NCBI GenBank assembly: GCA_963850305.1
Contig: CAWKKR010000007.1
Span: forward strand, 544,001 to 608,000
DNA from: an uncultured delta proteobacterium
GTDB lineage: Bacteria; Myxococcota_A; Polyangia; Polyangiales; Polyangiaceae
Reading direction: 5' to 3'
Length of the DNA stretch: 64,000 nucleotides
Made by a program: the position numbers and the translations under genes. Positions 1 to 4,377 of this stretch are shown here, in pieces. The number at the start of each line of letters is the position of its first letter. The first letter of the stretch is position 1. The notes beneath the pieces were generated by a model, which had not been told where the DNA came from, did not search any database, and saw nothing but the letters and a program-made list of their open reading frames with translations.

Positions 1-774
1 CTGTGTGCGAATGAAATCTCCGAGCGCGCGTGCGTACTCTGCGCCTCGCTGCGTGAGCGGCGGATCGCCGCCAATCCGTCCGAGCACGTTGAACTCACTC
101 TCGCCGTGGCGCGTAAGCCAGACTGGTCTGTCCGTCGGCTGAATCTGCATCAAAAAGAAGACGAGTCGCGAGCGGAGATAGCCCTCCAGCCGGTTGACGA
201 TGACCTGGCGCCCCATGTCGACGAGCTTGATGTAGCTGCCTTCGGCGTCCGAGACTGGCTCGTACGTTCGCTCATAGTGAGCGATTCGTGCGCGGAAATC
301 CCTGAACGCCGCATCGCTGGACATGCCCTCGTAGTCGGGAAGTCCCACCTTGTTGCGCCGGACGTTCGCATCCACGATCGCCTGGTCATCGCAGATCGTC
401 TCGACGAACATCACCTTTATTCCGGCTCTCGCACAGCGCTCTTGAATGACGGCGCGCCGGCTCCTCTCGGTGTTCGTGGCATCGTAAATGCCGACTTCGC
501 CGCCCTGGTCGAACCACGCGAGGAGATCGTCGAGGGCTGCCATGGCGAAGGCTAATCGTTCTTCCTTCGTCGCCGCGTTGTCCGGCGCGAAGTACGCTGC
601 CGGCTGCTTCGCTCCGGCGCGTCTACGGCGGTAGTCCCCGACGTTCACCCAGAGCGTGCGGTGGCCGAGCCACGCAAGGTATCGCTGGAGCTTCCGTGCG
701 ACGAACGTCTTGCCGCGCGCCGGCAACCCTACCATGACTAGCGCCAGCTTCTGTGGACCGGGACTCGAGCTCAT
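1..774 (-). CDS. Bifunctional 6-phosphofructo-2-kinase/fructose-2,6-bisphosphatase (eukaryote-type PFK-2/FBPase-2), truncated by the left window edge
   Basis: Not in the ORF track. My translation from ATG 774 is open to position 1: MSSSPGPQKLALVMVGLPARGKTFVARKLQRYLAWLG..VNVGDYRR..GIYDATNTERSRR..MFVETICDD..PDYEG..DFRARIAHYERTYEP..SYIKLVDMGRQVIVNRLEGYLRSRLVFFLM..VWLTRHGESEFNVLGRIGGDPPLT. These are the 6PF2K Walker A and DATN motifs followed by the His-phosphatase RHG motif. Confidence 0.93.
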   Translation of the reverse strand, partial: MSSSPGPQKLALVMVGLPARGKTFVARKLQRYLAWLGHRTLWVNVGDYRRRRAGAKQPAAYFAPDNAATKEERLAFAMAALDDLLAWFDQGGEVGIYDATNTERSRRAVIQERCARAGIKVMFVETICDDQAIVDANVRRNKVGLPDYEGMSSDAAFRDFRARIAHYERTYEPVSDAEGSYIKLVDMGRQVIVNRLEGYLRSRLVFFLMQIQPTDRPVWLTRHGESEFNVLGRIGGDPPLTQRGAEYARALGDFIRTQ

Positions 775-792
775 CGGGCACCTATATCGAAA

Positions 793-2898
793 CTACTCGC
801 ACGCGCCGGCGGTGCCGCAAGGGGTACAAAGCTCGCCTGCGTTGCAGCCGATGCCGTTCAAGGTCGCCTTCACGATGGGGTTCGTGATCTGGCAATCCGG
901 CAGACAAGCCCCGAGCCCTGCGGAGCAGCTCGGGAAGTTCGCCGTTGCATCTGCCACCTTCAAGTCAGGCATACACAACGAGCCTGCGCCGCAAGAATCT
1001 TGAGGGAGCGTCGACGCCTCGGTGGAACCGATGAGCACGGTCGGCACGCAGGTCCCGCGCGCGGCGCCGTTCGTGGCGGGGTAGGGACAGCACGTCGGAT
1101 AGAGGGTCTTGGCCCCCGCGGGCTTGTCACCATTGAATTTGCAGGCGCCGCTGTCGACACCGGTGACCGGGTCGTAACAAGGGACGCAGAGCTCGTTCGC
1201 CGCGCAGGTCTCCTCTAGCAAGGTCGACGCGGCGGCGGCCACTTTCGGCATGCACGATGGGAGGCACCGGGCCTCGAGGTTGCCGGGCGCGGTGCAGCTC
1301 GCGGGCTTTGCAGACGGGTCGAGGAGCGCGGTCGGCGCGCACACGAGTGACGTCCCGGTGCACGTATCTGCTCCGAGTTCCGCCGCGGTAGACGCCGCTA
1401 CGTACGTTTTCGGAACGCAATCCCCCACGCCGCCGCAGCAGGCTGTGAAGGTCTTCTTCGCGGCTTTCGGCGCGTCGCCGTTTTCGTCGCACACGCCGGT
1501 GTCCGAACCGGTTTGCGGATCGTAGCAGGGCGCGCAGAGCGTGTTCGCGGGACACGCGGGAGAACCGGAGTCGAGCCTGGCTTTTTCGGCTTGTATCGAC
1601 GGAACGCAAGCCGGGATGCAACGGCCTTCGGCGCCAACTGCGCCCAGCGCCGTGCAGGCCTTCGGCAGGTCTCCCGTGACGGAAAACACGTCGGGTGAAC
1701 AGAGCGACCCGCTCCCCGTGCACGTATCCTTGTCGAGCGACGCTTGCTCGCCTGCCGTCAGGAGCGTCGATGGCAAGCAATGTCCAAGTCCGCTACAGCA
1801 CCCAGGGAACTGGAAGGGCTGATTCTTCGGGGTGTCTCCGTTCTGCGTGCAGGCGGACGTCTCCTCGCCGGAGATCGGATCGTAACAGGGGGCGCACAGA
1901 TAGCCGCTCGCGCAGACGTCCTGGGGCAAACTGCTCGCCTCGGACGCGATGTCGGGCAAACAGCTCTCGAGGCACCGTCCTTCGCTGCCGCCCAGGGACG
2001 TGCAGATTGGCGGCTGGGACGTGCCGTCGCTCAAGTCGTTCGGCGAGCAGAGGTCCGCGGCGTTCTTGCAGACGTCCTTGTCGAGCAAGATGGCCGACGA
2101 CAGCGAACTCGAGGGGACGCACGAGCCGAGGCCGCCGCAGCAAGCTTGAAACGGGTTCGGCGCCTCGGTCGGCCCAGGGTCGCAGCCCTGATCGCAGGCG
2201 TGGGTGTTCGCGCCTGTCCGCGGATCGTAGCAGGGCGCGCAGAGATCTCCGGCTCCGCAGACATCGCGAGGCAAGGATGCGGCCTGAGACGCGATGCTGG
2301 GAATGCACGTCGAGAGGCAACGACCCTCTTCGCCGTTCACGGATGTACAAGTTGGCGGGATGAATTTACCGGCGCGCGCGAGAACGTACGCCGGTATGCA
2401 TTTGCTGCCCGTCCCGCAGTCGGCGAAAAACGCCGCGGACGCCTCCGGAACGAGGCTGGACGCGACGCACTTGCCGTTCGTGCAAAGCGGGAAGTCCGTC
2501 GAGCTACACGCAACGTCGTTCGACACGTCGAGGAGTGTCGCGGGCACGACGCAACCTTCTGCGCCGCCGCCCGTGCCACCTTCGGTAGAGCCAGCATCAC
2601 TTCCCTTCGCGACGACCCCGGAATCATCGTGCGCGTCCACACCCGCGTCGACAACCGAGCCACTTCCGGTCCCGCCTGTAACCGAGGTTCCCCCGGCTCC
2701 CGGCGGGACGCCCCCGTTCCCGCTCTGGCCGAGAGAATTCGTCCCCCCCGCGCCGAAGATGGCATTGCCTGCGTCCGGCTGATGCTCATGACCGCCGCTC
2801 GTGCTCGAACCGCAAGCGGTGACGACCTGGCCGCAGGCGAACAGGACAAAGGCCTCAAGAATCCGGATCAGGAACTTCGAGCCGATGAGGGTCTTCAT
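793..2898 (-). CDS. Cys-rich repeat lipoprotein
   Basis: Lipobox-like VVTAC, Gly/Thr linker, four ~115-120 aa repeats containing C(A/V)PCYDP. ATG 2898 preferred over TTG 2904. Confidence 0.85.
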   Translation of the reverse strand: MKTLIGSKFLIRILEAFVLFACGQVVTACGSSTSGGHEHQPDAGNAIFGAGGTNSLGQSGNGGVPPGAGGTSVTGGTGSGSVVDAGVDAHDDSGVVAKGSDAGSTEGGTGGGAEGCVVPATLLDVSNDVACSSTDFPLCTNGKCVASSLVPEASAAFFADCGTGSKCIPAYVLARAGKFIPPTCTSVNGEEGRCLSTCIPSIASQAASLPRDVCGAGDLCAPCYDPRTGANTHACDQGCDPGPTEAPNPFQACCGGLGSCVPSSSLSSAILLDKDVCKNAADLCSPNDLSDGTSQPPICTSLGGSEGRCLESCLPDIASEASSLPQDVCASGYLCAPCYDPISGEETSACTQNGDTPKNQPFQFPGCCSGLGHCLPSTLLTAGEQASLDKDTCTGSGSLCSPDVFSVTGDLPKACTALGAVGAEGRCIPACVPSIQAEKARLDSGSPACPANTLCAPCYDPQTGSDTGVCDENGDAPKAAKKTFTACCGGVGDCVPKTYVAASTAAELGADTCTGTSLVCAPTALLDPSAKPASCTAPGNLEARCLPSCMPKVAAAASTLLEETCAANELCVPCYDPVTGVDSGACKFNGDKPAGAKTLYPTCCPYPATNGAARGTCVPTVLIGSTEASTLPQDSCGAGSLCMPDLKVADATANFPSCSAGLGACLPDCQITNPIVKATLNGIGCNAGELCTPCGTAGACE

Positions 2899-2982
2899 CA
2901 CCAAGCAAGCCTCTCCAGGCTGCCGCGTCAGAGCCTAGCAGATCGGATCCTCACCGCAGACTGAACGAATTTTGCACGAGGC

Positions 2983-4377
2983 TCACGCTGCGCGTTCGGC
3001 GGCGCCCCCGCCGGCCAGCTCCTCGACCGAATCCGCGATGCCCCGCGCCAGGATCTCGGCGTCCGGGAACAGATCGAAATCTGCGTTGATACCGAAGCCG
3101 ACTTTGCCGTTATACGAAAGCGCGGCAATCCCGAGCGACGTGACGCCGGCGATGGGCACGACGGGGAAAGCGTCGATCATCTCGCCGCCCTTGAGGAAGA
3201 GCGGAAACTGGGGTCCCGGCACGTTCGTGACGACCAGGTTGCACATCCGCGCGAGCGGGAGTGCCTTGCCCGCCAGCGAGAGCACAGTGGGCGGCGCGTA
3301 GGCGCTGGCCTTCAACCAGAAGTCCGCGGCGACGGCCTGGTTCGATTCTTTCGCCGCACGCATGGATGCCTGGACGCGCCGGACGCGCTCGTCCGGCCGT
3401 TCCTCGCCGATGGGCAAATCCGCAACGACCCAACTCACCCGATTGCCGGGCGTATTACGCTCCGATGCCGCGCGGAAACTGACGGGGATCATGGCCTTCA
3501 AGACGAGCCCGTCCACGGTTTCTTTTCGTTCCAGCAGGAGCTTCCGGAGGCCACCGGACACGACGGCGAGCAGCACGTCGTTCACGGTGCAGTCGAGCCG
3601 CGCACGCACGGTCTTCAGCTTTCCGAGCTCGGTTCGCACGGTCTCGAACCGCCGGTGCGGTCCGATGCCGCGAGTGAATGAGGTTCTCGGCGCGAGTTCG
3701 AGCCCGGCTCTGCCGAACGACAGGAGCCCGCGGGCGAGGTCTTTGCCACGCTCCAGGTATTCACGAGGTGCCTGCGACACCTTCCGGACGGATCGCATGA
3801 CGTCCGCCGGTTGAGCGGCGCGCTCGACGAGAGCGTCGCGGAGCAATTCCGAAGGGGTCGGCGGTGCCTCGGGGACCCAGGGCGGCACGTCCAGCGGGGG
3901 CGATTCAGGTCCGAAATCCAGCAAAACAGTCCCGATGTCGACAGCGCCGAGCCCATCGACGAGGCAGTGGTGGCACTTCGTCAAGAGAGCGCTTCGTCCG
4001 CCCGGGAGGCTGACATGCCAGATCTCCCAGAGTGGACGGTTGCGTTCCAGCTGGCGTCCGAGCAGGCGCGAAGCAAGCCGCAGCAGGTCACGCTCCGTTG
4101 CGCTTGCCGGGAGCTTGGTGAAGATGACGTGGTTTCGGACATCGAAGTCCCGATCGTCTATCCACACCGGCCTGCCCTGATTCCCCGGCACCCAGGCGAT
4201 CTTCTGCCGGTACCGCGGCACGAGGTGAAGTCGCCGTTCCACGTGGGAGAGCAGCGCGAGTTCGCGTGAGTCGGCGTCTTGAAAGATCGTGAGCGAGCCC
4301 ACGTGCATGTGCGCCGTCGGCGATTCCGCGTACAAGAAAGCCGAGTCAATCGGCTGTAGCCGCTCGTATCGGGTCAT
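2983..4377 (-). CDS. Wax ester synthase/diacylglycerol acyltransferase (WS/DGAT)
   Basis: DSAFLYAE..HMHVG N-terminus, catalytic HHCLVDG, TVNDVLLA, NLVVTNVPGP. Confidence 0.95.
   Translation of the reverse strand: MTRYERLQPIDSAFLYAESPTAHMHVGSLTIFQDADSRELALLSHVERRLHLVPRYRQKIAWVPGNQGRPVWIDDRDFDVRNHVIFTKLPASATERDLLRLASRLLGRQLERNRPLWEIWHVSLPGGRSALLTKCHHCLVDGLGAVDIGTVLLDFGPESPPLDVPPWVPEAPPTPSELLRDALVERAAQPADVMRSVRKVSQAPREYLERGKDLARGLLSFGRAGLELAPRTSFTRGIGPHRRFETVRTELGKLKTVRARLDCTVNDVLLAVVSGGLRKLLLERKETVDGLVLKAMIPVSFRAASERNTPGNRVSWVVADLPIGEERPDERVRRVQASMRAAKESNQAVAADFWLKASAYAPPTVLSLAGKALPLARMCNLVVTNVPGPQFPLFLKGGEMIDAFPVVPIAGVTSLGIAALSYNGKVGFGINADFDLFPDAEILARGIADSVEELAGGGAAERAA

Follow-up and report, generated by a model that had tools for sequence, protein, structure and literature searches.

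The DNA analysed here (the window, 64,000 nucleotides from a myxobacterium of the Polyangiaceae) carries at its left edge the 5' part of a gene for a 6-phosphofructo-2-kinase/fructose-2,6-bisphosphatase (PFK-2/FBPase-2). Judged from sequence comparison and a predicted fold, the protein is confirmed as a genuine member of the PFKFB family in which both active sites appear intact, and it is predicted with high confidence to make fructose 2,6-bisphosphate (Fru-2,6-P2). The best reading, to which we assign a probability of roughly 0.55, is that the enzyme would act as a metabolite-controlled Fru-2,6-P2 switch damping class I fructose-1,6-bisphosphatase (FBPase I).

Domain layout and active sites

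The first 258 of the 405 codons occupy 1..774 of the window on the minus strand, while the last 147 codons, together with the stop, are located left of the window on the genome contig (G000:C7:543557-544000). There the frame continues unbroken to the stop at C7:543557, so the 3' end, which was absent from the initial annotation, is intact and the full gene encodes a protein of 405 amino acids (P0001). The motifs MVGLPARGKT, NVGDYRR, DATN, FVETIC, PDY and RHGESEFNVLGRIGGD, from which that annotation had recognised the enzyme, are all present in the minus-strand frame from 774 to 1. Its proposal of a kinase fused to a histidine phosphatase was also borne out by the search with Pfam models. Residues 8-214 (133..753, minus strand) match the 6-phosphofructo-2-kinase domain (6PF2K, PF01591) with 237.5 bits and an E-value of 1.5e-70, compared to a far weaker match of 34.4 bits and 3.3e-08 for another P-loop kinase, AAA_33. 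In the same open reading frame, this N-terminal domain is followed by the FBPase-2 (histidine-phosphatase) domain (His_Phos_1, PF00300, E 1.1e-40, residues 218-393), which starts in the window with residues 218-258 (1..123, minus strand) and extends beyond it to approximately residue 393 of the full 405-aa protein. NCBIfam holds no model for the PFK-2/FBPase-2 family, and a consensus scan found no promoter-like site for the gene.

The conservation of the active sites was determined in 166 bacterial-type rows, comprising the query, 46 locus proteins and 119 partly redundant database matches (at least 63% identity). Apart from gaps, 32 of the 42 checked motif positions were invariant, including R20, G21 and K22 of the P-loop GLPARGKT (residues 16-23; 706..729, minus strand) as well as R222, H223 and G224 of the RHGE motif (100..111, minus strand), whose His223 we take, from knowledge of the family, to be the phospho-accepting histidine. 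Aligned with PFKFB3, the kinase domain comprises the catalytic and fructose-6-phosphate-binding residues K22, T23, R49, R50, R73, D98, T100 and R106 together with K142, R163 and Y167, and this set is conserved across the 166 rows. The bisphosphatase residues R222, H223, N229, R271, E291, Y302, R316, K320, Y331, H357, Q358 and R362 are likewise present; for both domains the roles are assumed to be those of the rat liver enzyme. The mean column conservation was alike for the kinase substrate residues and the phosphatase residues (0.76 and 0.77). Position 271 is occupied by arginine in all 166 rows, compared to a serine in human PFKFB3, which is the cause of the weak phosphatase of that enzyme.

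The best sequence matches in the PDB were PFKFB1-4 (E of about 1e-112, query residues 10-396), and an AlphaFold model based on a 66-row alignment reached a pLDDT of 94.8 (33 from the single sequence without an alignment) and Foldseek TMq values of 0.94-0.96 against PFKFB chains. At an identity of 44-46% to the animal enzymes (PDB 1K6M, 1BIF, 2AXN, 5HR5 and 5HTK), the domain order, the fold and the residues of both domains are alike, as the initial annotation had claimed from order and motifs. In contrast to the animal enzymes, the protein is encoded by a single copy, the genome shows no two-lobed PFK-1, and the phosphorylatable N- and C-terminal regulatory tails are absent, with only about nine residues before the first strand and about three after the last. 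Since these tails are missing, the balance of the two activities is probably set by metabolites. The query length of 405 aa is close to the median of its relatives (407 aa); two of these, L094 (G056) and the one of G119, show an insertion of approximately 35-45 aa near the beginning of the phosphatase domain, with an open frame and split matches.

The highest eukaryotic identities (53-55%) were determined for plant, algal and protist enzymes (Stylosanthes, Chlorokybus, Rhodelphis and Acytostelium), with P0122 of Rhodelphis marinus as the top-scoring named eukaryotic protein (55%). Unlike the query, these enzymes carry N-terminal extensions of 130-350 aa, for which a CBM20 is named in the plant protein, and a sister grouping of them with the bacterial rows is not supported.

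Candidate targets of the product

The genome, which is 94.8% complete, encodes one class I FBPase (on contig C8) adjoining a class I aldolase gene, and no match to GlpX was found in it. Among solved structures, E. coli Fbp is the closest relative of this FBPase, which agrees in its active-site residues with the pig and E. coli enzymes, whose numbering we assume to apply here. Both the pig and the E. coli FBPase are inhibited by Fru-2,6-P2. Furthermore, the genome contains pyruvate kinase genes and three phosphofructokinase (PFK) loci, for which the best models were PRK06830 (an intact ATP-PFK), PFK_mixed (split) and, for a divergent protein, PRK03202. Neither a two-lobed eukaryotic PFK-1 or plant-type PFP nor a short PPi-type PFK was found in this genome, where the best match to the latter had 36% identity. 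Altogether, the class I FBPase with its apparently intact active site and the ATP-type PFKs are plausible predicted targets.

The split PFK_mixed-type gene (L070:1471-2605, contig C4) is interrupted by one frameshift near L070:2160-2185, which may be an assembly error or the mark of a pseudogene; its same-genus orthologue L234 is intact. The divergent PFK-like protein (L072:1408-2619, contig C8) comprises GGNGT, SIDND and MGN in place of GGDGS, TIDND and MGR. Its orthologues, about 68% identical, occur in four of 78 family genomes, all of them PFK-2 carriers, and as a partner it was rejected, since it is too rare to explain the family.

In the proposed mechanism, a compact bifunctional enzyme would correspond to the eukaryotic core without its regulatory tails. 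The N-terminal P-loop domain would bind ATP and fructose-6-phosphate and phosphorylate the sugar at C2, and the C-terminal histidine-phosphatase domain would take this phosphate off again via phospho-His223. Metabolites would probably set the ratio of kinase to phosphatase activity, and the level of Fru-2,6-P2 would report the hexose phosphate supply. By binding at the active site, Fru-2,6-P2 would inhibit the class I FBPase encoded on C8, and under plentiful sugar both the gluconeogenic flux and an ATP-wasting cycling against the ATP-type PFKs would be halted. Class I FBPase is thus taken as the likeliest target in this organism, at somewhat better than even odds.

A new clue to the target of the PFK-2 product is its co-occurrence with FBPase I. 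In the family sample, FBPase I was found in all 30 chosen carriers compared to 28 of 48 chosen non-carriers, some of which are only 76-88% complete. The evenly drawn phylum sample, in which the comparison is confounded by kinship, showed FBPase I in 61 of 66 carriers and in 103 of 235 non-carriers. Among 60 genomes with a short PPi-PFK and without FBPase I, a single one carries PFK-2. Of the 18 genomes of family f29, two carry PFK-2 and just one encodes FBPase I, the latter being one of the two carriers. The three Acidobacteriota carriers all have FBPase I, compared to 29 of 101 genomes in that phylum, a count that includes the unpublished G454. On the FBPase tree, the carriage of PFK-2 is clustered (13 changes among 84 rows), and because of this clustering by kinship the Fisher significance of the co-occurrence is overstated.

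A scan for co-adaptation showed FBPase active-site residues that are equally conserved in 44 carriers and 40 non-carriers; no active-site residue discriminated the two groups, and the top associated columns track sub-clades. In five carriers of 93-96% completeness (G220, G233, G282, G414 and G370), neither FBPase I nor GlpX gave a match. Three of them (G220, G233 and G282) represent one genus, g162 of family f18, which has kept PFK-2/FBPase-2 with no match to either enzyme and offers a natural test case for a possible other target.

The gene neighbourhoods were surveyed at 49 loci, where crude calling gave 604 genes, and Pfam was applied to 116 of 138 flanking ORFs with 22 left out. A conserved operon was rejected, since none extends past close kin and no neighbourhood is kept across families. 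At 131 partly redundant loci, fbp was never found near PFK-2, and the only glycolytic neighbour in the 49-locus survey was a PFK at L108. This locus belongs to a group formed by the distant families f35 and f29 (clade support 100/99, members placed in the LG+G4 tree), where seven of nine genomes, from three genera, encode PFK-2 and a short PPi-type PFK in a head-to-head arrangement (L108:7611-10116, L136 and L131-L135). Between the two starts lie 49 to about 300 bp, the linked PPi-PFKs show mutual identities down to 54%, and the remaining two genomes encode that PPi-PFK elsewhere. The linked PFK carries GGDDT/PKTIDND and has NF041103 as best model, at 543.7 bits compared to a cut-off of 550. 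The pairing is a second new clue to the target, as it connects the PFK-2 family with the Fru-6-P/Fru-1,6-P2 node and brings a PFK into consideration as target; it is also the natural pair best suited to probing whether Fru-2,6-P2 activates a bacterial PPi-PFK.

With the same chemistry, the main receiver could instead be a Fru-2,6-P2-activated PFK, in the manner of plant PFP or animal PFK-1, which would be the short PPi-PFK in some clades and an ATP-type PFK here. The head-to-head arrangement is consistent with this explanation, as is the presence of a PFK in all five carriers without FBPase I. We nevertheless consider it unlikely, since this genome lacks a match to such a PPi-PFK beyond the 36% noted above, FBPase I is also present in six of the seven linked genomes, and the short PPi-PFK was found across the phylum in only 15 of 66 PFK-2 carriers compared to 75 of 235 non-carriers (the first pass scored at most six candidates per genome). 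The intact PFK of this genome is moreover of the PRK06830 type, whose plant and trypanosome relatives are not known to respond to Fru-2,6-P2, and co-regulation of a single node, not allostery, may explain the head-to-head order.

Fru-2,6-P2 could also be made for another main receiver, for example a pyruvate kinase, as in trypanosomatids, or a transcription factor sensing sugar phosphates. The pyruvate kinase genes of this genome, the lack of a conserved neighbourhood pointing to FBPase and the one genus that keeps PFK-2 without FBPase I would fit such a receiver, which would however leave the nested distribution with FBPase I unexplained and appears very doubtful.

Equally doubtful is a different sugar phosphate substrate or a role mainly as a clean-up phosphatase, in which Fru-2,6-P2 would be no signal. 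Such a role would agree with the missing regulatory tails and with the statement, in the excerpt available of PMC9721465, that Desulfovibrio desulfuricans is the one exception to the absence of Fru-2,6-P2 from bacteria. Against it, conservation is as high at the kinase substrate residues as at those of the phosphatase, and a kinase would not be kept for a phosphatase-only role. Compared to these explanations, the damping of FBPase I by a Fru-2,6-P2 switch is preferred.

Native status and distribution

The PFK-2/FBPase-2 gene is native to this myxobacterium. It lies on a contig of 1.13 Mb and has a GC content of 0.64, compared to 0.66 for the contig, and with a GC3 of 0.80 it ranks near the 65th percentile among the genome's 3051 long GC3-biased ORFs. 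All three same-genus genomes contain orthologues at 74-80% identity, and the nearest named database records are Polyangiaceae MAGs. Compared to six relatives, third codon positions differ by 0.45-0.54 and second positions by 0.11-0.15, a three- to fourfold difference. On the downstream side, L002, L004, L005 and L006 share with the query a convergent receiver-domain gene and one more gene. Contamination, a chimeric assembly or a recent unassimilated eukaryotic transfer, to which the 44-55% identity to eukaryotic enzymes might point, can be dismissed, being refuted by the orthologues with shared synteny and opposed by the long contig, the host-like GC3 and the position of the query inside fully supported bacterial subclades.

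The host-like composition and the 18 bp between the gene and its upstream neighbour, which the initial annotation had put forward against contamination, were confirmed, and the synteny in relatives argues against a chimeric join. Two low-share DNA sequencing runs covered only short pieces and are too sparse to judge the join. A plasmid collection gave no match to the gene.

The upstream neighbour (793..2904, minus strand) encodes a lipoprotein-like, Cys-rich repeat protein of 703 aa with internal CAPCYDP-type repeats. It has no match in Pfam or NCBIfam, and its look-alike cluster in the Atlas consists of hypothetical proteins of Myxococcota. Since the Cys-rich gene lies directly upstream of PFK-2/FBPase-2 in only one of five close relatives (L002), it is not regarded as a functional partner. 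Two genes upstream, an ordinary wax ester synthase/DGAT gene was found (2983-4377, minus strand).

Bacterial homologues had been described in the initial annotation as sporadic at most, which is contradicted by the survey of the phylum. Of 300 genomes sampled from the phylum, 65 (about a fifth), from ten families, carry PFK-2/FBPase-2, which was also found in 59 of 150 genomes of the family and in all 23 genomes of family f18, compared to none of 14 control genomes. Among the carriers are several closed genomes consisting of a single contig (G046, G070, G086, G110 and G112), which suggests that cultivated hosts probably exist. Orthologues with 75-80% identity in Polyangiaceae and other Myxococcota MAGs are annotated by NCBI as '6-phosphofructo-2-kinase/fructose-2,6-bisphosphatase', a name that is a database annotation.

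Three Acidobacteriota MAGs (L003, L008 and L009) contain copies with 71-75% identity that are nested in the subclade of the query, while none of 200 other Acidobacteriota genomes carries the gene. This combination suggests that the Acidobacteriota copies came by transfer out of the myxobacteria, from Polyangiaceae. A separate group of compact PFK-2/FBPase-2 proteins (P0234, P0298-P0301, P0308 and P0348; 400-440 aa, rich in Asn, Lys and Ile) originates from metagenome contigs and falls outside the Myxococcota clade; viral contigs gave no match to P0234.

Origin of the family and biological meaning

The relation to the eukaryotic enzymes was analysed with three trees, all of which are unrooted and show a star-like backbone. 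Among their eukaryotic rows, about a dozen were identified by name and the others are presumed to be eukaryotic; the trees comprise no Desulfobacterota row. For the FastTree of 176 rows, 22 of the 151 database proteins were excluded because of their low coverage; in it the 49 bacterial rows, Rhodelphis and one further row fall on one side with an SH support of 82. In a quick C20 tree of 91 rows, the bacterial rows need five changes. The careful LG+G4 tree of 61 rows, from which 30 rows with long branches among them were dropped, places the bacterial rows on one side with a bootstrap of 19 and an SH-aLRT of 91, a split found in 22% of the bootstrap trees. The Rhodelphis protein P0122 lies among the bacterial rows in the FastTree, and the IQ-TREE runs give no placement for it.

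On this star-like backbone, the bacterial lineages split about as deeply as the eukaryotic ones. The trees thus indicate that PFK-2/FBPase-2 is an old family, and they give no direction of transfer between bacteria and eukaryotes; a bacterial donor to the eukaryotes is allowed, not shown. It can be imagined that Fru-2,6-P2 is an old second messenger of the Myxococcota, gating FBPase I and in one clade additionally the co-located PPi-PFK, and that the enzyme passed from there to an early eukaryote. We regard this combined scenario as quite unlikely. A transfer from myxobacteria to eukaryotes has been argued for plasmalogen synthesis genes, as stated in the excerpt available of PMC13012113; this precedent justifies asking about such a transfer but does not count as evidence for PFK-2/FBPase-2.

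The available part of PMC9721465, citing Rider et al. 2004, notes a bacterial two-domain PFK-2/FBPase-2 homologue in D. desulfuricans. In contrast to that enzyme, which is described as a lone exception and was compared here by description only, the Myxococcota family is common. The parts seen of PMC11793985 and PMC1665464 added nothing on bacteria. A literature search found neither a study nor a biochemical assay of a myxobacterial PFK-2, which is weak evidence of absence, since most subscription papers lie outside its coverage.

At the level of databases, the single gene is unsurprising, as its relatives are already annotated as PFK-2/FBPase-2. Nonetheless, the conservation of an enzyme with two predicted active sites in about one fifth of the sampled Myxococcota speaks against the absence of Fru-2,6-P2 from bacteria. 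The co-occurrence with FBPase I and the pairing with the PPi-PFK name specific candidate target enzymes, and with these targets named, Fru-2,6-P2 signalling in bacteria becomes a directly testable question.
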